Source of the DNA: Patescibacteria group bacterium
GTDB lineage: Bacteria; Patescibacteriota; Patescibacteriia; UM-FILTER-42-10
NCBI GenBank assembly: GCA_041666485.1
Contig: JBAYGW010000003.1
Location: 16,415-80,414 of the forward strand
DNA: 64,000 nucleotides
Reading direction: 5' to 3'
Below, piece by piece: positions 4,820 through 46,486 of this stretch. Position 1 is the first letter of the stretch; each line of letters begins with the position of its first letter. A program made the position numbers and the translations under genes. The notes below the pieces were generated by a model. It saw nothing but the letters and a program-made list of their open reading frames with translations, did no database searches and was not told the DNA's origin.

Positions 4820-5678
4820 ATAGTTTTTGGCATTTAGGACAAAAGGTTGTACCGCGGTTACTCACTTTGGTCCTGGACAGTTTAGTGTCACAGCGGAAAC
4901 AATTTTGTCCGCTACGCTTATATACTTTTCTCACGTTCTGGTAATTACCTTTTCTACCGAGCGCATCACGGTAATCTGATATGGATGTACCACGATACTT
5001 TACCGCCTTTTTCAGTATTTTAACAATAGCTGAATGGATGGCTTTGCTTTGTCTTACATTCAGACTGTCCGTTTTCTGTTTAGGATTGATCTTCGCTTCC
5101 CATAAAATCTCATCTGCATATATATTCCCGATTCCTGATACAAAATGCTGATCCAGTAAAATAGATTTAATAAAACCTTTTTTATTTTGGAGCCTTGATT
5201 TAAATACACTGTATGTAAACTCACGACTCAGCGGTTCCGGACCGAGTTTTTTCAGCCGCGGCATATCATTCTCTTCACTTGTTTTAAAAAGCTTAATCTC
5301 GCCAAATCTCCTCACATCCGAAAAAGCCAGCTCTTTATTATCATCCAAATAAAAGCGGGTGCGTATAAACTGATTAAAGGAATCGTAAAATGGACTGTCT
5401 TTTCCCTCTTTATTCTTCCAGTCATGATCACGATAAAGCAAATGACCGGTCATTTTTAAATGAATAAGTAATGTTTGATTACCTGTCAGATCAATCAGAA
5501 TATTTTTTGCCCGCCTTCTAACACCGGTCACTTTCCTGCCGACAATACCTTTCCTGACTTTCAAAACAGAAGGATGAAAGCTCTTCGGCCAATCAGTCCA
5601 AATCTTTTGAACAGTATGTCCTTTCAATTTTACATTTAAATCAGAAACAATTGTTTGTACTTCGGGCAGCTCCGGCAT
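4812..5678 (-). CDS. mutM: formamidopyrimidine-DNA glycosylase
   Basis: N-terminal MPELPEV, C-terminal zinc finger CFRC…CPKC. Confidence 0.85.
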   Translation of the reverse strand: MPELPEVQTIVSDLNVKLKGHTVQKIWTDWPKSFHPSVLKVRKGIVGRKVTGVRRRAKNILIDLTGNQTLLIHLKMTGHLLYRDHDWKNKEGKDSPFYDSFNQFIRTRFYLDDNKELAFSDVRRFGEIKLFKTSEENDMPRLKKLGPEPLSREFTYSVFKSRLQNKKGFIKSILLDQHFVSGIGNIYADEILWEAKINPKQKTDSLNVRQSKAIHSAIVKILKKAVKYRGTSISDYRDALGRKGNYQNVRKVYKRSGQNCFRCDTKLSRTKVSNRGTTFCPKCQKLYV

Positions 5679-5679
5679 A

Positions 5680-6078
5680 TTATATTATAATAGTTGATTG
5701 ATAATACTTCTCCTGAAAATTTATCTGCTTCCTTATTTCATCAACGCTGTATTTATTATTGTCAGCAACCACTAGTTTAAATTCATCATCATCTTTTCTT
5801 TCCACAAACGCGATAACAACACCTACATATTCATTAACGGGATTGTTGACACCCACCACATAAGCATCAACCGGCTCTCCGTCTCCCGCCATTGTTCCGG
5901 GGATATATCCGTAATTTATTTTGTATTTGGATTCCGGAAAATCAGGATGGCACGAACCAATTGGCCGGTCAATAATTACTTTCACTTTTTTACCTAACCA
6001 TTTTTTTGAGTCTTGATTCATTGGATTACAGCAATTATACCCTACCCAAGCCATAAAATAAAGAACCGAATTAACCAA
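5680..6078 (-). CDS. short inorganic-pyrophosphatase-like protein (family I PPase core)
   Basis: NYGYIPGTMAGDGEPVDAYVV matches PPase NYGFIPQT..DGDPLDVLVL; only ~130 aa. Confidence 0.55.
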   Translation of the reverse strand: MVNSVLYFMAWVGYNCCNPMNQDSKKWLGKKVKVIIDRPIGSCHPDFPESKYKINYGYIPGTMAGDGEPVDAYVVGVNNPVNEYVGVVIAFVERKDDDEFKLVVADNNKYSVDEIRKQINFQEKYYQSTIII

Positions 6079-9956: not shown

Positions 9957-10307
9957 TTAATGAATATGTTGATCTAAATGATTATCCAGCATTTCAACCT
10001 GTTCTTTGTCACTGATCTCAAGCATATAGCAAACGCACTTGCCCATTTTATACTTAGTTACAATCCGGGAGCGCTCTAGCATACTTAGCTGGTGCGACAC
10101 TGCGCTGATACTGATACCGAGCACAGCAGCGATATCTGAAACACAGATCTCTTCATAATGTTTTAATAACAGCAATATTTTTATCCTGGTCGGATCAGAC
10201 AAAACATTGCATAGATCACTTTGGATTTTTATGTGTTTACCGTTTCTTTTCAGCCAATTCTGATTTTTTAATATTTGCTTTTGCGTTAACATACTACGTT
10301 TTATCAT
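9957..10307 (-). CDS. ArsR/SmtB family transcriptional regulator
   Basis: wHTH segment ISISAVSHQLSMLERSRIV. Confidence 0.7.
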   Translation of the reverse strand: MIKRSMLTQKQILKNQNWLKRNGKHIKIQSDLCNVLSDPTRIKILLLLKHYEEICVSDIAAVLGISISAVSHQLSMLERSRIVTKYKMGKCVCYMLEISDKEQVEMLDNHLDQHIH

Positions 10308-10439
10308 TTGCTCAAGTGTCTTAATGATATAGCAATTTGTTACCGCCTGTCAAGTCGGGTCACAACTCCTCATAAAGCCAATCTTGACAATAACGTACTT
10401 TTGTATTACTTTCTTTGTATGTTGATCTTTGAAACAACG

Positions 10440-10660
10440 ATGTAGGTGGGAGGACCGCCGTACCAAAAAGCAAGCAGTAATGCTACCCGCTGGGTGACAT
10501 TGACTGACGGGATTCGTCTCGTCCGTGGGCAGATGTTGCCCTCTGGGATGCTAAAGTGCGCGTCCTCCCACCCCACTTTCTTCTACAAATTGCTTTGTGC
10601 GGACGCTTAAGTCCGTTTGTGATAGTCACCCCACAACCCGATCCTACAGGGAGGTACGCC
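10440..10660 (+). other. GC-rich highly structured non-coding segment (candidate leader/riboswitch-like RNA) upstream of GC-rich ORF
   Basis: 11-13 bp outer stem GGTGGGAGGAC…GTCCTCCCACC enclosing several short hairpins incl. AGCA-GUAA-UGCU (GNRA loop). Confidence 0.3.
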
Positions 10661-10760
10661 AAATGTACTCGTGGAGTTACGCACGCCACGGGTTCGGTTG
10701 ACCTGCGATCTTCTCCGTCTGAGTAGTCAATGCCCACGACTCAAAATGAGGAGATCTCGC

Positions 10761-11126
10761 ATGTGCGACAAGACCCAATGGAACGCGGGGCACGTCCTCG
10801 TCGTCCAGACCGTGTTCCCGACCGACAGCGAATCCCCCGGCGGTTTCTCGCGCAGCGTCATGTTGTGCACCTGTGGGAGCTGCCTGAGCTCCAACAACCC
10901 GATGACGCCCGCAGGGCCCCTGCACAGCTACCTGAAACGGTGCTTTGAGCAGGACGCTGCTGATGCGGTGGCGGGGGGCCTTGAGCCGCCCGTCAACCTC
11001 CTGAGCATGCCGAAGCTTGACCCGCGCACCGGCGCCGAGAAGCCGACCAAGAAGCAGGCAGCCATGCTGATCAAGCAGATCGGTCCGGACGCCTTCGCTT
11101 CCGACATCGTCGCGGCCTACGCCTAG
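10761..11126 (+). CDS. hypothetical Cys-containing protein in GC-rich island
   Basis: AGGAG RBS 7 nt upstream of ATG; strong GC3 bias; followed by clean terminator. Confidence 0.45.
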   Translation: MCDKTQWNAGHVLVVQTVFPTDSESPGGFSRSVMLCTCGSCLSSNNPMTPAGPLHSYLKRCFEQDAADAVAGGLEPPVNLLSMPKLDPRTGAEKPTKKQAAMLIKQIGPDAFASDIVAAYA

Positions 11127-11158
11127 CGTAGGAGAAGAAGTACATCGTTGAAGGACAT

Positions 11159-11192
11159 CGGGCGAATCCACTGGATTCGCCCATTTTTTTAT
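11159..11192 (+). terminator. rho-independent terminator
   Basis: GGGCGAATCCA-C-TGGATTCGCCC followed by TTTTTTT. Confidence 0.75.
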
Positions 11193-11276
11193 TATGAATA
11201 TTGACAGAAGAAGTGGAATACAATACCATTGTTAACGCCCGCTGATTGTAAGACATCCTTCATGGAGGAGGTGGAC

Positions 11277-11573
11277 ATGTCCCAAAGTCGGCTGGTGATG
11301 TTCTTAATGCTCTTTCTCGGACTGACTCTCTCTCCCCTGTTTCTTGTCGTTGCGGCGGTTATGTTCCTTGCTCCCTCGGAGCCGAAGCTCATCCCCCGGG
11401 ATGATGAAGGGAGACGTTGCTGTCCCGTCTGCCACTCCAGACACTATCTCATCTTCCCGACTCGGCAGAAGAGCTACTTCGGCCATTCCTGGATTTCAGC
11501 ATTTTGCAGAAACCAAATGGAATACCGCTACCAGGACTGCACAATGAGCTGGAAAGAATCCGGGGACGGCTAA
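11277..11573 (+). CDS. hypothetical membrane-anchored Cys-rich small protein
   Basis: GGAGGAGG RBS; N-terminal TM helix then CCPVCH…C…C. Confidence 0.4.
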   Translation: MSQSRLVMFLMLFLGLTLSPLFLVVAAVMFLAPSEPKLIPRDDEGRRCCPVCHSRHYLIFPTRQKSYFGHSWISAFCRNQMEYRYQDCTMSWKESGDG

Positions 11574-11623
11574 ACCGCGTTGATGTTCTATCAGCGCTTT
11601 TTTTATATATTTATTTGACGTTA

Positions 11624-11959
11624 CTATCTGAAGATTTTAGACAGAAACCAGTTTACAATAGCCAGTACAATACCAAACAGCAATGCCCACCAAAAGCTTG
11701 CTATGGAAAATCCCGGAACAATTAACGCCATCAGCATAACCAATAATGCGTTAATCACCAGCGTAAACAAGCCAAGCGTCAGAATATTGATCGGCAGAGT
11801 AAAAATTACTAAAACAGGTTTGATAAATATATTAATCAGACCCAATACCAACGCCCCGACAAAAGCGACAAAAAAACCATCAACCGCTACGCCCGGTAGC
11901 AGATAGGCTGTGATCAGGATTGCGACCGTTGAAATTAGCCATTTAATAAGGATTTTCAT
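11624..11959 (-). CDS. DUF360 / holin-family-4-like small membrane protein
   Basis: 111 aa, 3-4 TM, LPGVAVDGFFVAFVGALVLGLIN pattern. Confidence 0.5.
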   Translation of the reverse strand: MKILIKWLISTVAILITAYLLPGVAVDGFFVAFVGALVLGLINIFIKPVLVIFTLPINILTLGLFTLVINALLVMLMALIVPGFSIASFWWALLFGIVLAIVNWFLSKIFR

Positions 11960-12156
11960 ATTGTTTTATTTAATGATTATGAAATCTTAGCTCTCTCTCC
12001 ATCAACCCAAAATAGTTGTTCATTATTAACAAAAGTAGGTATAATTAATGTACAAATATATTTTAGCACAATTCGCATAAAATACTCTATATTGCTGAAA
12101 TACGACATATATTCGTGTTGAAACGGGTTAAGTGAAATTCTAAATCTATTTTACAT

Positions 12157-13206
12157 ATGACAAACCATTACGAACAACAATTACAATTTGCTGCCCGTCG
12201 TGAGCAAGAGTCACTATTTACTGACGAGAATTGGATGGTACGCGTCAACAACGAGCTCCATAGTACGTACTTACCACTAGATAAGGATAAAGAAACACTA
12301 AGACCAGAATATCATGCTAAATTACTGGAAGATGCAGAGGCGTATTACCTGAACATTGGTGACGATTTCAATACATTTCGTCTACGATTGAAAAGAGGAA
12401 ATTTACGGGAAGCTGAACAACTAGCGCAAGTATTTTTATCTAAAACAGAAGAACCTAATTTTTTCGCCCATTACACTTCACACCCAGAGGCAATGGACGA
12501 TGCAAACATTCTTGAATTAAAAAAAACATACGTTTTGAGTGATTTAGCGAGATATAAGAAAGATGAAGAGTTACAAAAACAAGCTGCTGCAAGATTCATT
12601 ACTTACGCGGAAAATCAATCGCAACGTGATGAACTATCTGGCTACGAGGCATCAGCTCTCGGATTCTGGCAGGCACGAAGTCTTGTTACAGAAAACAAGC
12701 GAGCTGATATTTCAAATAATTGCATTGCCCAGTTTCGGAAAGCTGCTGAAGATAGAGCTAAAGTCGGGGATCGCTGGTGGGAAAGCATTGCACTGCGCCA
12801 AATAGGCAAAATCTCACCAGATCCAGCGGATAAGCAGGCAGCCTTACAAAGGTCAGAGGAACTGATTACGGAATATACGCAAATGGGCGATTACAAAAAA
12901 GCAGCCCTCTGGGCTCGCGATGTAAATGATCTCAATCCTTCAACAGAAAATGCTCAAAGAATGGAAGATTTGTGGAATGAAAACATAAGGAGAATGCAGG
13001 AAAGTGGTAATACGCGAGACATAGCTAAATCGCTCTGGTCTTTGTTCAAAAGGGTAAGAAAATACGATAGTGAAAAAGCTGAAGATTGCAGATTAAAGAC
13101 AATAGAGTGGTATGAGAAACTCTTATCCGAGGAAAAGGCTAAAAAGCAACCGAGAGAAGACAGAATACGCGAGTGCTATTGGGTATTCAGTGAGCTCATT
13201 CAATAA
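12157..13206 (+). CDS. hypothetical protein, predicted all-alpha
   Basis: long ORF, coding-like composition, no recognised motif. Confidence 0.5.
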   Translation: MTNHYEQQLQFAARREQESLFTDENWMVRVNNELHSTYLPLDKDKETLRPEYHAKLLEDAEAYYLNIGDDFNTFRLRLKRGNLREAEQLAQVFLSKTEEPNFFAHYTSHPEAMDDANILELKKTYVLSDLARYKKDEELQKQAAARFITYAENQSQRDELSGYEASALGFWQARSLVTENKRADISNNCIAQFRKAAEDRAKVGDRWWESIALRQIGKISPDPADKQAALQRSEELITEYTQMGDYKKAALWARDVNDLNPSTENAQRMEDLWNENIRRMQESGNTRDIAKSLWSLFKRVRKYDSEKAEDCRLKTIEWYEKLLSEEKAKKQPREDRIRECYWVFSELIQ

Positions 13207-13290
13207 ATTCAGAACTTCACACAACACCGCGTATGCGGAGAGTTTAAATCATATAGAAACAATCGGAAAATAATAAATATAGTATAATTT

Positions 13291-13779
13291 ATGACTAAAA
13301 AAATAGTTGGAATAATGGGTCCCGGTAGTAAAGCCACCATGAAGGACCTAAAAAACGCCTACAATATCGGAAAATTTTGTGCTGAAAATAACTGGGTTAC
13401 TTTAACAGGTGGCAGAAACAAAGGAGTAATGAATGAAGCATTAAAAGGCGCGAAAAAGGGTAACGGCTTAACTATCGGAATATTGCCAACTGATGAAAAA
13501 AATAAATTTTCTAAATTCCTAGATATTGCAATCTGCACAAATATGAGATCTGGAAGAAATTATATAAATGTTTTGTCTAGTGATATAGTAGTAGCCTGTG
13601 GTATAGACCCTGGCACATCTTCAGAGATCAGTTTGGCAATAAAACCAAAAAAGAATGTAATTTTAGTAGGACTTAATAAAGAGGCAAAAGACTTTTATAA
13701 AAAACTAGCCCCTAAACAAGTTTATTGTGTAAAAAATTATATAGAAGCAAATAAAATATTAGCTGAAAAACTTGGGTGA
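13291..13779 (+). CDS. LOG/TIGR00725-family Rossmann-fold nucleotide-binding protein (putative nucleotide N-glycosidase)
   Basis: TGGRNKGVMNEALKGA and DPGTSSEISLA approximate LOG GGGxxGxM / PGGxGTxxE motifs. Confidence 0.6.
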   Translation: MTKKIVGIMGPGSKATMKDLKNAYNIGKFCAENNWVTLTGGRNKGVMNEALKGAKKGNGLTIGILPTDEKNKFSKFLDIAICTNMRSGRNYINVLSSDIVVACGIDPGTSSEISLAIKPKKNVILVGLNKEAKDFYKKLAPKQVYCVKNYIEANKILAEKLG

Positions 13780-13785
13780 TTTTTT

Positions 13786-13992
13786 GTGTCATACATCACC
13801 CCCGACCTTGACGAAGCTGGCAAAAAACAACTTGCGGATGTTGTATTAGCTATGAGAAAAGATTTGTTAGGCAGAAAAACTAAATTAAAACATGATGATA
13901 TAAAATATTTCATGTTACTTACGACAAATAGTAATATATTTTACTTCGTACAACACGCATTAGGAGAAATGCATAAACCAATTGAAAATTAA
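13786..13992 (+). CDS. hypothetical small protein
   Basis: 68-aa ORF tightly packed between two related genes. Confidence 0.3.
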   Translation: MSYITPDLDEAGKKQLADVVLAMRKDLLGRKTKLKHDDIKYFMLLTTNSNIFYFVQHALGEMHKPIEN

Positions 13993-14001
13993 ATAAATAG
14001 A

Positions 14002-14418
14002 ATGAAAATTGTAATTTGCGGAAGTATGTCGTCAGCAGTTAAGATGTTAAACGCTGAGAAAGAATTACTTCAAAAAGGCCATAAAGTTGTATTACCAAAA
14101 CATACAAAAGAATATGCAGAAATAGAATCGGAGGCGGACACATCACATGAATCAATCAAGGACAAAATTGAACAAGATCTAATACGAGACTATTTTGAAG
14201 AGATAAAAAACGCTGATGCAGTTTTGATTATTAATGTTGATAAATACGGTATTCAAAATTATATCGGTGGAAATGCTTTTCTGGAAATGGGTTTTGCATA
14301 TGTTCTCAGTAAACCAATTTATATACTCAATCAAATTCCGGAAATATTTTATAAAGATGAGATTTTGGCAATGCAGCCGATTACACTTAACGGAAATTTA
14401 TCTAAAATACATTTATAG
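14002..14418 (+). CDS. nucleoside 2-deoxyribosyltransferase / DNPH1(Rcl)-like protein
   Basis: MKIVICGSM N-terminus and NAFLEMGFAYVLSKPIYIL (catalytic Glu context) typical of NDT/Rcl fold. Confidence 0.5.
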   Translation: MKIVICGSMSSAVKMLNAEKELLQKGHKVVLPKHTKEYAEIESEADTSHESIKDKIEQDLIRDYFEEIKNADAVLIINVDKYGIQNYIGGNAFLEMGFAYVLSKPIYILNQIPEIFYKDEILAMQPITLNGNLSKIHL

Positions 14419-14696
14419 TTAGCAAATTTTTACCATTTTCTTCTATTGTTATATAATAAGAAAACAATAAAAATCAAGCATCGCACCAGCCTTGGCGAGG
14501 CGGGCAACACCGGATATCACCACTACGGTCTAGAACCCTTGGGGGCCTTTTTCAAGGAATTTCAGAGAGTTTTTCAAGAGGTCACCCCGTCATACGACGG
14601 GGCAGGAAATGAGACAAAAGAGACAGTGCAGAGGGGTGTCTTATTCTTGACTCATTTAAATAACAGTAGCGTAATATTTACACGTTTAATTATCTC

Positions 14697-14723
14697 AAAA
14701 GGCACGAATTGATATTCGTGCCC
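14697..14723 (-). terminator. putative terminator hairpin
   Basis: GGCACGAAT-TGAT-ATTCGTGCC 9-bp stem, T-run on minus strand. Confidence 0.4.
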
Positions 14724-34912: not shown

Positions 34913-36415
34913 TTAGGTAATTGTAAAAATATTGATTTTTTCAATCGCTTTCTTTGCCAGTTCAATTCTTTCCCTGCGATTCGCGTAAAAAGTGAACAGT
35001 TTACTACCCTTTTTAACTTCCTGTCCAACCCTTTTGTGGAGGTAAATGCCGGCCAATTTTTCTGAAGGCGCACCTAGTGTTCTCGCAATTTCGTCAATTG
35101 CTTTATTATCTACTGCGGTTATTTTACCTGACTTTGCGGAAAGTACACGGTAATACTCACCGCCTAAGACCACTGCGTCGGAATCAATTGTAGAATTACC
35201 ACCCTGTTCCTTGATCACCACCTGCATTTTTTTCCACGCCTTACCTGATACCAGAATTTCTTCCGCAACTGATTTTCCCTTACCGCGCGCCACCTGCCCC
35301 GATATTTCCAGAAGTTTTCCCGCCAAAACCAGTGCTTTATCTTCTAAATCTTTCGGCCTGTTACTTTTTTGCTGCAATACCCGGAGAACATCGCGTGATT
35401 CCAAGGCCGGTCCAACCCCTCTGCCGACCGGTTCATTGGCAAAAATTTTTTCAACATGTATTTTAATCCCAAAACGCTTGCCAAGATACATAAACTTTTT
35501 TTCAATCTCATTCGCGGTCTTCATATCCGGAATTTTTGAGGTGATTCCGACCGGCATATCAATCACCAGATACTTGATACCCATGGCAACTTTTTTCGCC
35601 ATAATACTTACCACCATTTTATCAAACGGTTCCAAGGAGAGTGGTTTTGTCACCTGAATAATCAAATCATCCGCCGGAGCAATATTTAAACCACCGCCCC
35701 AGATCATACATACTTTGTTTTTCATCACCATTTGTTTGATTCTGGTCATGGAAAATCCGACCGGAGCCAATACTTCCATAGTATCCGCCGTACCCGACGG
35801 TGAAGTGATCGCCCGGGAGGAGGTTTTTGGAATATATAAACCAAAGGCTGCAACAATCGGAACAACAATCATAGTTGTCCTATTGCCGGCCAAACCGCCG
35901 ACGGAATGTTTATCAACTACAATTTTATTTCCGGAAAATCTCAACTGCTCGCCGGTTTCCGCAATTGATTTTGTAAGATAATACAGCTCCAGTGGAGTAT
36001 AAGGCCTTGCAAAACTAGACGCGACAAAATATGATGTTTCCACCGGTCCGAGTCTGCGGCTGACAATATCTGCTATGATTGAATGAATTTCCTCATAACT
36101 TAAAACACCGCCCTTAATTTTCTTATTAATTGCTTTTACTGATTCCGGACGTTCAACGATTGAAACCTCAATGATTTGATCTTTCTTCATCGGGTACTTC
36201 GCCCAGATCTCTTCAAAAAAACCGATCTCCCCCGGCTTTATTTCATTTTCCGCCAGGTTTACAGTAGCAAATATTCTTTTACGGTTATGCCAGGACAAAC
36301 CGATATGGTCATTAGCATGAATACCAAAATTGAGGGCTTCTTTTTCATTTAAAAGCACCTTCGGCATCTCGCCGGTTTCAATATCAATTTTTTTTGCCCT
36401 TAAATAAAATGCCAT
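34913..36415 (-). CDS. AMP phosphorylase (thymidine-phosphorylase family, archaeal DeoA-type)
   Basis: Near full-length similarity to Thermococcus AMPpase incl. HSVGGLAGNRTTMIVVPIVAA, PKTSSRAITSPSGTADTMEV. Confidence 0.85.
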   Translation of the reverse strand: MAFYLRAKKIDIETGEMPKVLLNEKEALNFGIHANDHIGLSWHNRKRIFATVNLAENEIKPGEIGFFEEIWAKYPMKKDQIIEVSIVERPESVKAINKKIKGGVLSYEEIHSIIADIVSRRLGPVETSYFVASSFARPYTPLELYYLTKSIAETGEQLRFSGNKIVVDKHSVGGLAGNRTTMIVVPIVAAFGLYIPKTSSRAITSPSGTADTMEVLAPVGFSMTRIKQMVMKNKVCMIWGGGLNIAPADDLIIQVTKPLSLEPFDKMVVSIMAKKVAMGIKYLVIDMPVGITSKIPDMKTANEIEKKFMYLGKRFGIKIHVEKIFANEPVGRGVGPALESRDVLRVLQQKSNRPKDLEDKALVLAGKLLEISGQVARGKGKSVAEEILVSGKAWKKMQVVIKEQGGNSTIDSDAVVLGGEYYRVLSAKSGKITAVDNKAIDEIARTLGAPSEKLAGIYLHKRVGQEVKKGSKLFTFYANRRERIELAKKAIEKINIFTIT

Positions 36416-36516: not shown

Positions 36517-37800
36517 TTACTTATCCCCATCCTTCCAATGTCTGAGCGCAACGGCTAACTCTCCGTGGTCTTTGGCATACTCATCCAGATCAATCCCCGC
36601 AAGCGTCGCGTCTAATGCCTGTTTAACGGCTGTCGCTCCGGCAAATGTTCCTTCCGGATGACCATGGATACCCCCGCCAAAATTCAGAATTACATCTTTG
36701 CCGAATATTTTATAAAGCGAAGGTATTAAATTGGGATACAACCCGCCTGATGCGATCGGGAATGTTGATTTAATATTAAACCACTTACTGCGCAGAAAAT
36801 CATCTATTTCAACTACATCACTTTTTCCACCCTCCATTTTCCCCACAACCGTGCCGGTGTGCAGCTGATCAATACCTGCCAGACGCGCCAATTTTGACAG
36901 CACTAGCATACTCATTCCATGTTTTTGGTTCTTAGTGAACATAGAATGCCCAGCTCTGTGACCGTGAATTATAAGACCTAAATCCCGTTTGCGTAACATT
37001 TGCACATTATCAAGTCCTACGGAAACCATGTCAATCATTACCACTTCACCGCCGAGGCTTTTGACCAGCTGCGCTCTTTTGATCATTTCATCCGGTTGTG
37101 CTGTTACATTAAACACGCACAATTTTTTGCAGCCTGTTTCTTTTTCCGCTTTATCCCTCATTTTAAGAGTAAGCCGGACTCGCTGATCAAATCGGCTGAA
37201 AGAAAGGTCGGTTAAATTTTCATCATCTTTGACCAGATCAATTCCACCGATAAAGACCTGGTAAGACAGTGTGGCATGCTGCAGAGCGGACAAGCCCAGC
37301 TTTGGTTTCAGAATTGATCCCAGTATGGGCCGGTCATAAATTCCCATAATGCGCCTGATCCCTTTTATGCCGAAACGCGGGCCCTGAAAACTTTCAACAT
37401 ATTCTTTCGGAAAGTCTACATCCACTAATCTGAGATTCCTTATGATCTTCATACTAAAAACATTACCCGCCACACCGGATAAAAATTGCGGGATGCTCCC
37501 CTTTTCAAAAAGCGCCAAGGGATAGGCAACTTTGAATGTATGGGCTTTTTTATCAATATCATATGCTTTCGCGCTCAGCTTCGTGAATGTTGCTTTGGAT
37601 AATGTGGCAAGATCCGTCCAGGTTCCAATAGAAGATTCCGCCGCCACTCCGCCCGCCGCATCGTTAAAATCAACATTGGTATCCATATAGAATGAAGCGA
37701 CAAGTTCTGTTTTCTTCGGCTGATAGCTTTTTTTTACAAATTTTTGGTAAAATTTATTCATATTATAGATTCTTGAAAATCCATGGATAATGCTTTTCAA
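36517..37800 (-). CDS. rbcL: ribulose-1,5-bisphosphate carboxylase large subunit, form II/III
   Basis: KPKLG carbamylation site, GGIDLVKDDEN, IHGHRAGHSMF, GGGIHGHP; alternative start at 37761. Confidence 0.88.
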   Translation of the reverse strand: MKSIIHGFSRIYNMNKFYQKFVKKSYQPKKTELVASFYMDTNVDFNDAAGGVAAESSIGTWTDLATLSKATFTKLSAKAYDIDKKAHTFKVAYPLALFEKGSIPQFLSGVAGNVFSMKIIRNLRLVDVDFPKEYVESFQGPRFGIKGIRRIMGIYDRPILGSILKPKLGLSALQHATLSYQVFIGGIDLVKDDENLTDLSFSRFDQRVRLTLKMRDKAEKETGCKKLCVFNVTAQPDEMIKRAQLVKSLGGEVVMIDMVSVGLDNVQMLRKRDLGLIIHGHRAGHSMFTKNQKHGMSMLVLSKLARLAGIDQLHTGTVVGKMEGGKSDVVEIDDFLRSKWFNIKSTFPIASGGLYPNLIPSLYKIFGKDVILNFGGGIHGHPEGTFAGATAVKQALDATLAGIDLDEYAKDHGELAVALRHWKDGDK

Positions 37801-38719
37801 CTAAATAAGCAACATCACGTGGCTTAATAATACCAAATTCACAAATTATTCCTTTGATGAATTTAGATGGAATGCGGTCAAAAGCGAAATTGATTATTTT
37901 TAATCCTTTCGGACCGTTCGGCCAGATTTCTTTGCGATCCCGCAATTCAATGCCAACATATTTGCTGATAAATGTTTCCGGATCGGTTTTTAAAAGTGAA
38001 GCGGCGACATAAACCGGAATTTTTTCGTGGTTAGCAACCTGGGCGATTCCGTAGCTACCGACTTTGTTGATCACTGAGCCGCCGGATGTAACCGAGTCTG
38101 CACCCAAAAAAGCAATATCCACCATCACTTCCCGGCCACTGGTTCTGCTGATCAGAAAAGCGGCAGCTGAATCAGCCACCATTGTGACGTCAATCTTTCG
38201 CTTTAATAGATTCTTAGCTGTTATTCGCCCCTGGAAAAGCGGGCGGGTTTCTGTACAAAAAACATGCGGCATCTTTGAATGTTTATTAGCCTCAGTAATA
38301 ATATGCTCCACAGTTGAAGAATGGCAGTGCGTGAATACTTTCATATCTTGCTTAATCAGTTTTGCGCCGGCTACGGCAATTTTTTGATCATGATATTTCA
38401 GCAAAACTAAAAAAAGATGGCAAGCTTTTTTTAGCAACTTCGCCAACTCAGGCACGGATAAACCTTCTTTATTATTCTCTAAATAATGTAAAACGAATTG
38501 GACTGAATTACGGGACAGCGGTTCGGTCGGCCTTGCTTCCGCCAAGGCTTTGCCACTTTTACGAATAGCAGAAAGAAACTGGCTTTTATTTTTTTTTAGC
38601 AATTGATTACTTTCCAACTGCAACGCGTCCAAAATTACTTTGGTTATCTGCGTTGCACCCTGTATTTCTAAAGATGCTATTTTTGTTACTGTTTTTTGTA
38701 CTGCGCTATTCATAAACAC
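37763..38719 (-). CDS. ribose-1,5-bisphosphate isomerase (eIF-2B alpha/beta/delta family)
   Basis: e2b2-family core …VTMVADSAAAFL…FLGADSVTSGGSVINKVGSYG. Confidence 0.72.
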   Translation of the reverse strand: MFMNSAVQKTVTKIASLEIQGATQITKVILDALQLESNQLLKKNKSQFLSAIRKSGKALAEARPTEPLSRNSVQFVLHYLENNKEGLSVPELAKLLKKACHLFLVLLKYHDQKIAVAGAKLIKQDMKVFTHCHSSTVEHIITEANKHSKMPHVFCTETRPLFQGRITAKNLLKRKIDVTMVADSAAAFLISRTSGREVMVDIAFLGADSVTSGGSVINKVGSYGIAQVANHEKIPVYVAASLLKTDPETFISKYVGIELRDRKEIWPNGPKGLKIINFAFDRIPSKFIKGIICEFGIIKPRDVAYLVEKHYPWIFKNL

Positions 38720-38734
38720 AGTATACCATTTATA

Positions 38735-40558
38735 TCATTCCCATTCAATCGTCCCTGGCGGCTTGTTGGTGAAATCAAAAACAATCAAATCTATTTGTTT
38801 TATTCTTTTTAAGCGTCCGACAACCTGGTCAATAAAAGATCGGGACAACGGGAAATACTTGACCGTCATTGCTTCCTCCGATTGCACGGGGCGCAAAATT
38901 ACTGTGTAGCCGCCCGCAATGGAATATGGGGCCAGGATTACGGGAAATTGCCAGATTTTAGAATCCAGTCGGGCTTTTTTCATTTCAGACTGTACTATGT
39001 CGTCAATATTCTGCAGTAGAGCCACGTTTTTTTTCGTCAGCAGAAGTTTAATATTTTTTCCTCCGCTAATATCTTTTTTCCTGCTAAAAATCACCCAGCA
39101 CACCCGATTTACATTTTGAATCTGATTTGCCACGAGCGGACCGAGCTTTTGCATTTGAATAGTATTCATTTCTCCGGAGAAAACCGCGGGATGGGCGTAA
39201 GTCCGTTCATCGCCCTGAACGCCCACACTTCTGACCGGTAGTACCCAGCCTTTAATATCTGATTTGTTCTCATAATTGAACTGCGAGATTATTATATCCA
39301 AATCGGCATTTTCTTTCTTTACATTTACATGCACCTTATTTCCCCGGGAACAAATTATACGGATTGCCAACCCCGGACCGGGAAATGGATGACGATTGAT
39401 AATTTCTCCAGGCAAGCCGATCTGCTTGCCGAGCTGCCGTACTTCGTCTTTGTACAAGTCTTTCAAAGGCTCAATGACCAACCCGCGTTTTATTAATTCC
39501 AAAACTTCTTTTACCCGATTATGGTGTGTTTTTATTTTATCGGCGTGCTTCGTCCCGCCCGATTCAATTGTATCCGGATAAATAGTCCCCTGCGCCAGAA
39601 TCCATTCCTTTGGATTCAGTTTGAATTTCTTCATCGCAATTCTTTGAACATCCAGATACGTCCTGCCGATAATCTCGCGTTTGCGTTCCGGACTGATAAT
39701 ACCTTTTAACCTCTTATAGAATAGTACGGAAGCATCCATTACTTCCAGATTGGTAAACCCTAGTTTATTGAAACGTTTTTTTATTTCCTCTGATTCATTT
39801 TTTCTCATGAACCCCAGATCAATATGCAGACCAAACACCTTTTCTTTGCCCAAGATCCGATTCAGTAACCCGAAACATACGGCAGAATCAACTCCGCCGG
39901 AAACCAGCAAAAATACCTTGCGACTTCCTACTTTCCTAACTATCTCTTTTTCAATATCAGTTAAGTAATGTTTAATATCCCATTCCTTTTTAGCGCCGCA
40001 GATACTGAAAACAAAGTTATTAATTAATTCCATTCCACGTTCTGTATGTGATACTTCGGGGTGAAACTGGACTCCGTATATTTTCATTATGCTGTTTCCC
40101 ATCGCTGCTACCGGGCAATCAGCAGTCTTTGCCATGACTTTAAATCCCTTCGGCACATTTAATACAAGATCACCATGACTCATCCAAACCTGTTCGTTTG
40201 CACCAAATTTCCTGAACAGCTTGCCGGGTTCAATTACTGACAGGTTGGCAAAACCATATTCTCTCACATCACCCCTGACTACTTTTCCGCCCATTAGATA
40301 GGTGATCAGTTGGTGACCATAGCAAACACCTAGGATTGGTACGCCGCTTTTCAGTATTCTCCGGTCAAATTTTATTTTCCCGTCATAAACGCTGTTTGGT
40401 CCGCCGGACAGGATTATTCCCCAGGACGACCTTAATTCTTCAAGTGGCGTTTCGGGATTGTAAATATTAGCTAAAACACCAAGTTGCCGGATTCTGCGTG
40501 CAATCAGGTGGGTATATTGTGAACCAAAATCCAGAATTGTTATGTGTTTTTGTTTCAT
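38735..40558 (-). CDS. guaA: GMP synthase (glutamine-hydrolysing)
   Basis: GATase ILDFGSQYTHLIARRIR, PP-loop SGGVDSAV, C-terminal …IEWE; 607 aa (longer than usual). Confidence 0.9.
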   Translation of the reverse strand: MKQKHITILDFGSQYTHLIARRIRQLGVLANIYNPETPLEELRSSWGIILSGGPNSVYDGKIKFDRRILKSGVPILGVCYGHQLITYLMGGKVVRGDVREYGFANLSVIEPGKLFRKFGANEQVWMSHGDLVLNVPKGFKVMAKTADCPVAAMGNSIMKIYGVQFHPEVSHTERGMELINNFVFSICGAKKEWDIKHYLTDIEKEIVRKVGSRKVFLLVSGGVDSAVCFGLLNRILGKEKVFGLHIDLGFMRKNESEEIKKRFNKLGFTNLEVMDASVLFYKRLKGIISPERKREIIGRTYLDVQRIAMKKFKLNPKEWILAQGTIYPDTIESGGTKHADKIKTHHNRVKEVLELIKRGLVIEPLKDLYKDEVRQLGKQIGLPGEIINRHPFPGPGLAIRIICSRGNKVHVNVKKENADLDIIISQFNYENKSDIKGWVLPVRSVGVQGDERTYAHPAVFSGEMNTIQMQKLGPLVANQIQNVNRVCWVIFSRKKDISGGKNIKLLLTKKNVALLQNIDDIVQSEMKKARLDSKIWQFPVILAPYSIAGGYTVILRPVQSEEAMTVKYFPLSRSFIDQVVGRLKRIKQIDLIVFDFTNKPPGTIEWE

Positions 40559-40711: not shown

Positions 40712-42187
40712 ATGTTTACCCAGTTTGAAGAAACATTAACATTTGATGATGTATTGTTAGTTCCGCAAAAGTCATCAATTCTTCCGAATGAAACCGAGAT
40801 TAAAACCAGGCTGACACGCAGGATAAATTTAAATATTCCATTAATCTCATCCCCGATGGACACTGTAACCGAACACCGGCTGGCGATCGCCCTGGCACTG
40901 CACGGCGGAATCGGGATAATTCATAAAAATATGCCTGCCGACAAACAGGCGCAGGAAGTAAGTTTTGTAAAAAGATTTGAAAACGGCTTTATTGAAAATC
41001 CTGCCACACTGCAGCCGGAAGATCCGATTGATGACGCGGCGGAAATTAGAGACAAAAAAGGATACAAAAAAATTCCGATTGTTGATAAAAACAACAAGCT
41101 GGTGGGAATGATTACCGAGCAGGATTATTTCGTGCCCGACGATTTGAAACTGCCGATAAAATTTAAAATGAAACGTTTGAATGAAATTGTGGTCGCTAAG
41201 CACGGCATCACCCTCCAACAAGCAAATAAAATTATTAGGGAGAAAAAGCTCACCGCATTGCCGATCGTTAATAAGCAGGGAAAACTGGTTAGTATGGTTA
41301 CCAGAAAAGATTTGGAAAAAAACGAGCAGCACCCCAATGCCTGCAAGGATGATAAAAAACAACTGCGGGTCGGTGCCGCTATTTCCGTCGGCCCGGAAGC
41401 TCTGGAACGCGCCAAATATTTGGTTGCCGCCGGAGTAGATGTATTGGTCGTTGATACCGCTCACGGCCATACTAAGGGCGTATTGGATACGGTAAGAGCG
41501 CTGAAAAAAAATAAATTGTTTTCTAATATTGATATCATCGCCGGGAATGTCGCAACAGAAGAAGGAACCAGAGATCTGATCAGGGCTGGTGCGGACGCTG
41601 TAAAGGTAGGGGTCGGGCCGGGATCAATCTGTACCACCAGAGTAATTGCGGGGATCGGTGTACCACAAATCAGCGCGATTCTGGCGGCGGTAAAAGGCCG
41701 GGGTAAATCCAATATTCCCATTATTGCTGACGGCGGTATCCGATACTCAGGCGATATAGTAAAAGCACTTGGTGCTAAAGCGGATTCCGTAATGATCGGC
41801 AGTCTTTTTGCCGGTTGTGAAGAAACACCAGGTGAAATAGAGTATGAAGGTGGCAAAATGTATAAATCCTACCGCGGGATGGGTTCAAAAGAAGCCATGA
41901 TCCACGGATCCAAAGACCGTTACGGACAGGGAGAGCAAAAAGACAGTGAAAAACTGGTGCCGGAAGGTGTATCAGCCAGGGTTATTTATAAAGGGCTGGT
42001 TTCAAGACACATATATCAGTTGATCGGCGGGATTAGATCCGGTATGGGTTATATCGGCTCTAAAACAATTTCGGAGTTGCACAGGAAAGCAAGATTTATT
42101 AAAATCAGCTCTGCGGGACTGCGAGAAAGTCATCCACATGATGTAACAATTACAAAACAGCCGCCAAATTATCATTCGGAAAAATAA
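40712..42187 (+). CDS. guaB: IMP dehydrogenase
   Basis: [13 protein letters not shown] pair, [11 protein letters not shown] catalytic loop. Confidence 0.92.
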
Positions 42188-45364: not shown

Positions 45365-46486
45365 ATGATTAAAGCCATCATATTTGATTTCGGGAACGTT
45401 ATAGCCAGTTTTGACAATGGTTTATTTTTGAAAAAAATTTCCAAATATACCAGTAAATCTATTGACAAGTTGTATGAACTAATCTATAAAAAATCAAAAC
45501 TGCCAAGCCAATACGAACAGGGAAAAATTAACTCCGATGAATTTTACAACCAAGTTGTAAAACTATGTGATCTGAAAATCAGTCAGATACAATTTAGAGA
45601 CGCCTATACTCAGATATTCACACCGATTCCGGAAACAATTGAGCTGATTAATGCACTTAAGCCAAATTATAAGCTGGGGCTTTTATCCAGCACCAGCGAG
45701 TGGGATTTTGAATTTGGATTCAAACCGCTAATTGATGTGTCTATTTTTGATTCAATTACATTAACCTATCAGCTAGGAATTAAAAAACCGGATCCGAAAT
45801 TATTTCACGATGCTTTAAATAAACTGAGTGTTGCCCCAAACGAAACTGCCTATATTGATGATCTCCCGGAAACAATTGAAGTAGCCAATAATCTGGGTAT
45901 TCATGGAATATTATTTACCGGTAATGACACCCTGCAAGCATCACTGCATAAACTGGGGGTTGAAGTTAATAATACCTACCGCCCGAATTATGTGCAAAAA
46001 GTTACGATAGCTGACGAGAATGACAAAAAAATTGGATACAAATACCGGGATCAAATCACAGAGACAGATATTTTTCGGGCGACCGGCTTGTGGATTACCA
46101 ATTCAAAAGGCGAAATACTTTTAGCCCGAAGAGCACTGTCAAAAAAAATGCATCCGGGATTATGGAGTACCGCCGTTGCCGGAACAGTTGAAGAAGATGA
46201 AACATACGAACAAAATGTAATCAAAGAAGCTGAAGAGGAACTTGGTATCGTTGGCGAAACTTTTATTCCGTATGAAAAAACCAGAATCCGAGGAAAACAC
46301 AATTTCTTCATCCAATGGTACACTTTAGTCATAAATAAAAAAGCTGAGGAATTCATGTTGCAACCAGAGGAAGTGGTTGAAGTAAAATGGTTCAAAAAAT
46401 CCGAGCTAAAATTGTTGCTGAAAGAAAAACCGGAAATATTTACGTCTTCGCTGCCTCAGTGGGTATCTTTATTCCTGGCGAAATAG
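45365..46486 (+). CDS. HAD-superfamily hydrolase fused to C-terminal NUDIX domain
   Basis: HAD motif I IIFDFGNVI, motif IV YIDD; Nudix box GTVEEDETYEQNVIKEAEEELGI. Confidence 0.7.
   Translation: MIKAIIFDFGNVIASFDNGLFLKKISKYTSKSIDKLYELIYKKSKLPSQYEQGKINSDEFYNQVVKLCDLKISQIQFRDAYTQIFTPIPETIELINALKPNYKLGLLSSTSEWDFEFGFKPLIDVSIFDSITLTYQLGIKKPDPKLFHDALNKLSVAPNETAYIDDLPETIEVANNLGIHGILFTGNDTLQASLHKLGVEVNNTYRPNYVQKVTIADENDKKIGYKYRDQITETDIFRATGLWITNSKGEILLARRALSKKMHPGLWSTAVAGTVEEDETYEQNVIKEAEEELGIVGETFIPYEKTRIRGKHNFFIQWYTLVINKKAEEFMLQPEEVVEVKWFKKSELKLLLKEKPEIFTSSLPQWVSLFLAK

Follow-up and report, generated by a model that had tools for sequence, protein, structure and literature searches.

Do two neighbouring genes that recall nucleotide N-glycosidases form a functional unit in a patescibacterium? 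The question is raised by 64,000 nucleotides of DNA from a Patescibacteria group bacterium (assembly GCA_041666485.1, contig JBAYGW010000003.1, positions 16,415 to 80,414; this whole stretch is the window referred to below), in which four co-directional open reading frames (ORFs) on the plus strand, ORF0 to ORF3, follow one another. A first-pass annotation, made from the sequence alone, had correctly delimited ORF1 (13291-13779, +, 162 aa), ORF2 (13786-13992, +, 68 aa, GTG start) and ORF3 (14002-14418, +, 138 aa). It had read ORF1 as a LOG-type N-glycosidase and ORF3 as a relative of DNPH1 (Rcl) and the nucleoside 2-deoxyribosyltransferases (NDT), joined in a tight operon that might serve nucleotide salvage or a conflict system. 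At the level of folds this holds. ORF1 falls into the SLOG/LOG superfamily, as a SLOG cluster-4, TIGR00725-like Rossmann protein of the molybdenum cofactor (Moco) carrier protein (MCP) type, and ORF3 is a divergent member of the NDT/DNPH1 (Rcl) fold; each adds a new member to a known superfamily. From the assignments to families and folds, the conserved residues, the synteny breakpoints and the missing linkage in other genomes, all described below, it is quite probable, however, that ORF1 and ORF3 are unrelated stand-alone genes, which became neighbours by an accident of genome rearrangement.

Linkage of ORF1 and ORF3 in other genomes

Adjacency that recurs across independent lineages, the hallmark of a conserved two-gene system, was not found for ORF1 and ORF3. 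In a forward test, 80 loci with ORF3 relatives were collected, each from a different species, of which 75 permitted an analysis of the gene neighbourhood. A single locus (L069) encodes a SLOG-type protein, which shares 28% identity with ORF1; its gene is found 1.2 kb downstream of the ORF3 relative, two genes away. The reverse test covered 80 metagenome loci with SLOG cluster-4 (SLOG4) relatives, 490 kb in total, and none contains an ORF3-type gene. The neighbours of SLOG4 genes in these loci are heterogeneous, UbiA being the commonest. Close homologues of ORF1 also differ in context: one is situated in a region with an IS200 transposase and an integrase (L088), one in Nanoarchaeota next to genes for a DNA ligase and a HEPN/NTase pair, and one in Gracilibacteria after a phosphoribosyltransferase gene. 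Two genes that adjoin ORF1 homologues, of 150 aa in L088 and 132 aa in L093, were considered as cryptic ORF3 relatives and turned out not to be related. Beyond this contig, the identical arrangement was seen just on short, almost identical contigs of the same population, which come from three other samples. Because linkage is absent in the forward test (apart from the distant case in L069), in the reverse test and in the closest relatives, the adjacency in the window is incidental and does not exceed what random placement would produce.

A hypervariable slot upstream of ORF3

In blastn comparisons with the two closest syntenic relatives, L084 and L086, homology to the window ends at position 12138 and restarts at 13960 (L084) or 14002 (L086). 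The intervening block, 12139-13959, comprises ORF0, ORF1 and most of ORF2, and blastn detected no counterpart of it in either relative. Its flanks are conserved. ORF3 is 85% identical to its equivalent in L084 and 78% to that in L086, and the frame ArsR ... ORF3 ... CNNM-Maf-FeS_assembly_P-FtsX-ABC is kept in both; a PF04020 membrane-protein gene was called in L086 and not in L084. The genes upstream of ORF3 are different in each case. In L086 these encode HAD, methyltransferase and Nudix proteins and an AAA_18/33 kinase whose gene overlaps the ORF3 start, and in L084 a tyrosine integrase (5138-5950) and a Vpar_1526 protein. L088, which carries the closest ORF1 homologue, shares with the window only 13271-13785, that is the ORF1 gene alone, at 84% nucleotide identity (blastn), and has genes for an integrase and an IS200-type Y1 transposase nearby (1170-1988 and 5023-5457). 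The mobile-element genes in these variable slots are consistent with gene turnover there. Given the breakpoints in L084 and L086, the different upstream genes and the sharing of ORF1 alone with L088, ORF0, ORF1 and ORF2 are the lineage-specific filling of a hypervariable slot beside a stable core gene, ORF3. The slot would have taken up a TPR-like gene, a sporadic MCP-type SLOG4 gene and an orphan ORF.

ORF0 (12157-13206, +, 349 aa), the first gene of the lineage-specific block, encodes a rare TPR-like alpha-solenoid. It has no family in Pfam, NCBIfam or PADLOC, and about six full-length relatives were found among 1.84 billion representative sequences, the remaining matches being repeats. Its AlphaFold2 model is all-helical (pLDDT 84.6), and the best Foldseek matches of this model are LGN/Pins TPR and SNAP proteins. 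As a sensor partner of ORF1 it was rejected, being a rare solenoid with a homologue (45% identity) that does not adjoin a SLOG gene.

ORF2 is probably an orphan or a gene remnant and not part of any system. Except for one 99% identical copy, no database relatives were found. A stretch of ORF2, residues 5-41, matches the C-terminal end of an ORF of 139 aa in L053 at 51% identity; this suggests a gene remnant, although 37 aa are too few for certainty. The last 33 nt of ORF2 fall within the block conserved with L084 upstream of ORF3. ORF2 shares its reading frame with ORF1, from which it is separated by one TGA stop and two codons (13777-13788; AEKLG before the stop, FFVSYITPD after it). An apparent upstream extension of the match with L053 was traced to alignment through the in-frame C-terminus of ORF1 across this TGA. 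A read-through fusion of ORF1 and ORF2 was likewise rejected: the homologues of ORF1 stop at the same length, so the TGA does not appear to be recoded in the present genome. In the Gracilibacteria locus L093, TGA is a sense codon (code 25, Gly), and in-frame TGA codons abound in its SLOG4 gene.

A divergent NDT/DNPH1-fold family

The most useful remainder of the analysis is the uncharacterised family of ORF3 with its altered active site. In total, 489 homologues of about 137 aa each were retrieved, which are tightly conserved, and relatives occur in at least 569 species genomes, mostly of Patescibacteria and of archaea of the Woesearchaeota/Nanoarchaeota type. The nearest relatives are patescibacterial (78% identity in 'Patescibacteria group bacterium' GCA_041664365.1, 69-72% in metagenome-assembled genomes of Falkowbacteria and Andersenbacteria). 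Of the Pfam families that the first-pass annotation had named for profile searches, PF15891 gave ORF3 no match in the Pfam search, and PF05014 gave 19.7 bits, under its gathering cutoff of 28.8; 26 of 44 sampled relatives match PF05014 at E <= 0.01 (best E 3e-6). Searches of PDB chains with the ORF3 sequence and with the family profile returned noise only and no significant match. ORF3 has the flavodoxin-like fold of NDTs, and its kinship with these enzymes is visible only via this fold and the weak Pfam matches. A small, highly conserved NDT-fold family, present in hundreds of Patescibacteria and DPANN genomes, thus escapes the thresholds of Pfam and NCBIfam. The names given to its members are inconsistent and include 'hypothetical protein', 'nucleoside 2-deoxyribosyltransferase' and, at JGI, 'predicted RNA-binding protein with PUA domain'.

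Residue conservation was scored on an alignment of 44 sequences. Invariant or nearly so are C6-G7-S8-M9, E50-S51, K55, D59, R62, Y64, D72, N78, Y87, G89-G90-N91, E95, K104 and E120. An hhalign comparison of the family profile with human DNPH1 (HsDNPH1), weakly supported as a whole (E 0.064), places the invariant E95 on the nucleophile E104, D59 (43 of 44 relatives) on D80 and C6-G7-S8 on C26-G27-S28; residues 24, 80 and 104 of the HsDNPH1 sequence in this alignment agree with PDB mutant names and with PMC10483697, from which the roles of the DNPH1 active-site residues are taken. ORF3 hence combines the nucleophilic Glu (E98 in NDT, E104 in HsDNPH1) and the Asp (D72 and D80, respectively) of these enzymes. 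Other parts of the active site are altered. In all 42 non-gapped rows of the alignment, position 4, the equivalent of the active-site Tyr, is occupied by V, I, A or S. C6-G7-S8-M9 aligns with C26-G27-S28-I29 of DNPH1, and the G-G-N motif is invariant. A family-specific insert, E50-S51-x-x-N/D54-K55, is conserved as well, with S51 and K55 invariant and E50 present in 43 of 44 relatives.

Compared with the compact PF05014 NDTs of Desulfotalea psychrophila (PDB 7o62) and Bacillus psychrosaccharolyticus (6evs), ORF3 remains below the gathering cutoff of their family, has Val, Ile or Ala in place of the active-site Tyr in its family, carries Gly89 at the position of NDT Asp92 and bears the extra insert. 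With DNPH1/Rcl it shares the N-terminal C-G-S and the Asp and Glu counterparts, whereas Tyr24 is missing, the phosphate-binding Ser98 is replaced by Gly89, and Arg30 is not conserved, position 10 being S, T or K. DNPH1 recognises the 5'-phosphate through the side chains of Ser98 and Ser128' and through the S-I-R-G-G loop. As far as can be read from the sequences, the positions by which nucleoside and nucleotide substrates are told apart give an ambiguous picture in ORF3.

With regard to substrates and catalysis, we infer that Glu95 would attack C1' of a (deoxy)ribosyl nucleoside or nucleotide, giving a covalent glycosyl-enzyme, and that Asp59 would help the base to leave; the base would then be released by hydrolysis, or exchanged by transfer. 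The enzyme would serve base and sugar salvage or the cleaning of the nucleotide pool in a salvage-dependent organism. The genomic setting of the relatives is one of housekeeping and nucleotide metabolism. Their usual neighbours are genes for LysRS (23 of 75 loci), GreA (20) and SerRS (14), and the tightly adjacent genes on the same strand include those of HD (7), Nudix (5) and CYTH (3) phosphohydrolases. ORF3 behaves as a core gene.

The altered active site, with the Tyr missing, Gly at the Asp92/Ser98 position, the conserved insert and the invariant G-G-N, also permits a bolder interpretation, namely that ORF3 belongs to a branch of the NDT/DNPH1 superfamily that is common in Patescibacteria and DPANN, has so far not been characterised and could differ in substrate or chemistry from NDT, DNPH1 and MilB. 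Such a substrate could be, for example, a ribonucleotide or a modified nucleotide, the reaction might form a core part of the way in which these reduced symbionts scavenge nucleotides, and the co-expression with an MCP-type ligand carrier in the window would be due to chance. This interpretation is less likely than not and is put forward tentatively. Patescibacteria and DPANN are generally thought to rely on scavenged nucleotides, and a biochemical characterisation of the ORF3 family would complete the models of their nucleotide salvage at a point where these are deficient.

An MCP-type SLOG cluster-4 protein

ORF1 is matched by Pfam PF18306 (SLOG cluster 4) with 152.8 bits (E 6.7e-45), well over the gathering cutoff of 26.3. 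Against NCBIfam TIGR00725 it obtains 92.3 bits, which is under the curated cutoff of 106.9 and indicates a related protein below the equivalog threshold. PF03641, the LOG family that the first-pass annotation had named for a profile search, gave no match at E <= 1, and TIGR00730 and the LOG equivalog yield merely 18-19 bits. The best relatives of solved structure are the MCP of Rippkaea orientalis (RoMCP; PDB 6y01, E 5e-43), the Moco carrier of Chlamydomonas (CrMCP; 2iz5, E 1e-36) and TM1055 (1rcu). ORF1 and RoMCP align without gaps over 145 aa at 52% identity. RoMCP binds Moco selectively and hands it to apo-nitrate reductase, and its residues R42, S67, R89 and T109 coordinate anions in a crevice (PMC7470044); the corresponding residues of ORF1 are R42, T67, R89 and T109. 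By its similarity to a verified MCP and by its crevice residues, ORF1 thus has the sequence features of this protein type. SLOG4/MCP-type homologues are called 'cytochrome' in NCBI records. This name is misleading; it was probably carried over from 'p450 cytochrome, putative', under which the molecule of PDB 6y01 is entered as well.

The relation to LOG enzymes was analysed with a family profile of 33 relatives, which was aligned to the LOG structures 3qua and 7w2i. At the position of the LOG catalytic Arg (M-x-x-R-K motif) ORF1 has Gly88, and 32 of the 33 relatives have Gly or Ala. The PGG of the LOG motif PGGxGTxxE is replaced by G104-I-D, the full motif in ORF1 being G-I-D-P-G-T-S-S-E. G108, T109 and the terminal catalytic Glu (E112) are invariant in the family. 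MCPs have been excluded from the LOG family for their missing catalytic Arg and PGG motif (PMC5379747). With the LOG phosphoribohydrolases (PF03641; 3qua, 7w2i, 5wq3) ORF1 has in common the Rossmann-type SLOG fold, the GGxxGxM loop, the phosphate-loop G-T and the terminal Glu, and it differs by the lack of a PF03641 match, of PGG and of the Arg. Judged by its sequence, it is 'LOG-like' at the superfamily level only. The first-pass designation as a LOG N-glycosidase was therefore right as to superfamily and retained Glu. Loss of the PGG motif had been named in the first-pass annotation as a ground for refutation, and on this ground ORF1 fails as a LOG-type phosphoribohydrolase; with the LOG catalytic motif incomplete, ORF1 is not shown to be an N-glycosidase. 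The MCPs CrMCP and RoMCP resemble it more closely: they have the same length, align without gaps, belong to PF18306, contain R42, R89 and T109 and have Gly or Ala at the position of the LOG Arg. They differ in that S67 is Thr in ORF1, R42 varies among the relatives of ORF1, and the host of ORF1 is a patescibacterium with no Moco context seen. ORF1 most likely binds and carries a phosphate-bearing ligand (pterin/Moco-like or nucleotide-derived) in the R42/R89/T109 crevice and is not a nucleotide hydrolase; the LOG catalytic Arg and the PGG loop are missing.

It is doubtful, and somewhat unlikely, that ORF1 is a genuine Moco carrier in an organism that acquires or protects the cofactor, ORF3 being unrelated. 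The identity of 52% to a proven Moco binder and donor is inside the range of 50-60% counted as MCP-like in the RoMCP study (PMC7470044), and the anion-site residues are conserved in ORF1. However, no genes of Moco biosynthesis or for molybdenum enzymes were detected among the commonest families of SLOG4 neighbours or in the examined parts of the window, and R42 and position 67 vary in the family, R42 being replaced by Leu in 11 of the 33 relatives. Patescibacteria are not known to use Moco enzymes. The distribution of MCP-type SLOG proteins in Patescibacteria and DPANN is sporadic, and since these groups are not expected to use Moco, the ligand range of such proteins may be broader than Moco.

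Probable co-transcription and alternative explanations

Several observations weigh against an accidental neighbourhood of two unrelated genes and against the family assignments on which it builds. The ORFs are co-directional, only 6 nt (ORF1-ORF2) and 9 nt (ORF2-ORF3) separate them, and a search of the plus strand found no terminator-like sites between ORF1, ORF2 and ORF3; for these reasons the three are probably co-transcribed in the present genome. Both the SLOG and the NDT superfamilies handle nucleotide-like ligands, and relatives of ORF3 are found repeatedly among genes of nucleotide metabolism. The locus L069 combines CYTH, an ORF3 relative, a nuclease, a LOG-like gene and a phosphoribosyltransferase (PRTase), and together with the nucleotide-gene neighbourhoods it makes a loose functional theme possible. 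The statistical link between ORF3 and NDT is weak when drawn from primary structure alone, and ORF3 lacks the Tyr that tunes the nucleophile (Y7 in NDT, Y24 in DNPH1), having V4 there. Of the 'tight operon' in the first-pass annotation, the close co-directional genes stand, and a functional pair is not supported (a distant SLOG relative at one of 75 ORF3 loci, and no ORF3 relative at any of the 80 SLOG4 loci). If ORF1 and ORF3 are accidental neighbours, as is preferred here, their co-transcription would be a by-product of insertion rather than the sign of a shared pathway. A weak promoter-like site directly precedes ORF1 (13254-13283), and a strong one (TTTACC-17-TATAAT, 14429-14457) directly follows ORF3.

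L069 (2620-6335), which is patescibacterial, looks like a nucleotide-scavenging neighbourhood. Its gene order is CYTH, the ORF3 relative (with a 4-nt overlap with CYTH), a 244-aa nuclease-like ORF, a YerC/TrpR-like, a TIGR00725-like and a PRTase-like gene; the 244-aa ORF reads as a secreted staphylococcal-type nuclease. Except for the LOG-superfamily protein, these labels derive from a reading of the translations.

A salvage function of the pair, the alternative already considered in the first-pass annotation, is unlikely. According to this explanation, ORF1 (for example a (deoxy)nucleotide binder or a phosphoribohydrolase) and ORF3 (a dNMP/NMP N-glycosidase) would release bases and (deoxy)ribose-5-phosphate to feed the AMP phosphorylase/R15P isomerase/RuBisCO route at 34.9-38.7 kb. 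The genes of this route do lie within the window, some 21-25 kb away (the first-pass annotation had given 20 kb), and encode an AMP phosphorylase-like protein (34913-36415, -), a RuBisCO large subunit (36517-37800, -) and an IF-2B-family R15P isomerase-like protein (37763-38719, -). The explanation would further fit the tight co-directional arrangement without a terminator, the relatives of ORF3 that adjoin HD, Nudix, CYTH, 5'-nucleotidase and Maf genes, the LOG-like gene 1.2 kb from an ORF3 relative in L069, the Gracilibacteria SLOG4 gene after a phosphoribosyltransferase gene, and the coincidence of the ORF1 crevice residues with the site at which LOG enzymes bind the phosphate group of AMP or ribose-5-phosphate (PMC7470044). 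Yet the pairing is absent from the 75 ORF3 loci and the 80 SLOG4 loci, save the distant L069 case, and from the closest relatives; ORF1 is without the catalytic Arg, the PGG motif and a PF03641 match; the neighbours of SLOG4 genes elsewhere, with UbiA as the commonest, show no theme of nucleotide salvage; and the RuBisCO cluster is 21 kb off on the opposite strand. What survives of the salvage idea is some indirect support for ORF3 alone, whose relatives often stand beside HD, Nudix and CYTH genes.

A nucleotide-centred conflict (defence) module, in which the SLOG protein would sense a signalling nucleotide, the NDT-like protein act as an effector by degrading nucleotides and the TPR-like ORF0 serve as sensor or adaptor, is highly improbable, because PADLOC gives only partial, weak matches at the level of sub-threshold noise for ORF1 (PsyrA, E 1.6e-4, residues 4-67) and none for ORF2 and ORF3, ORF3 is no island gene, being conserved and adjoining aminoacyl-tRNA synthetase genes in many genomes, ORF0, ORF1 and ORF3 each occur elsewhere without the others, the SLOG cluster-4 domain, of MCP type, stands alone and is not fused to an effector, no recurrent ORF0-ORF1-ORF3 trio was found in defence islands by the searches, and the neighbourhood analysis revealed no conserved effector or sensor gene next to ORF1 or ORF3. 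SLOG conflict systems such as the SIR2-SLOG protein ThsA of Thoeris have the superfamily fold in common with ORF1, which differs from them by the lack of a fused effector and of conserved partner genes and by its SLOG family (cluster 4). A glycosidase pair of LOG and NDT or a conflict module is thus not present here, and a false lead is removed.

Other features of the window

The strong promoter-like site downstream of ORF3 precedes a GC-rich stretch of some 190 nt (region 14429-14660) that has no Rfam match. L084 retains the promoter region ahead of an OmdA gene; the window has just an unsupported ORF of 88 aa (14446-14712) there. The nucleotide-salvage/purine cluster that contains the RuBisCO gene continues with genes for GMP synthase (GuaA; 38735-40558, -) and IMPDH (40712-42187, +), and a HAD-Nudix fusion is encoded at 45365-46486.

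Upstream of the hypervariable slot, a GC-rich island (10300-11650; 50-55% GC, compared with about 37% for the genome) is conserved at 73-77% nucleotide identity in L086 (861-2191) and L084 (3512-4647). It has no Rfam or Pfam match. The island was considered as one large non-coding RNA, which was rejected because its alignment with the relatives revealed several separate elements, namely promoters, terminators, a hairpin and two small ORFs rich in GC. The first promoter is of the TTGACA type. One of the two ORFs, which is also Cys-rich, ends at 11126, and an intrinsic terminator at about 11185-11215 shows compensatory changes. A second promoter, with a strong Shine-Dalgarno sequence, belongs to a small membrane/CxxC ORF that extends to 11573, and another terminator is situated at 11577-11597. 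The long hairpin (approximately 10436-10575, some 140 nt) is perfectly conserved and could be a regulatory leader or a small RNA.

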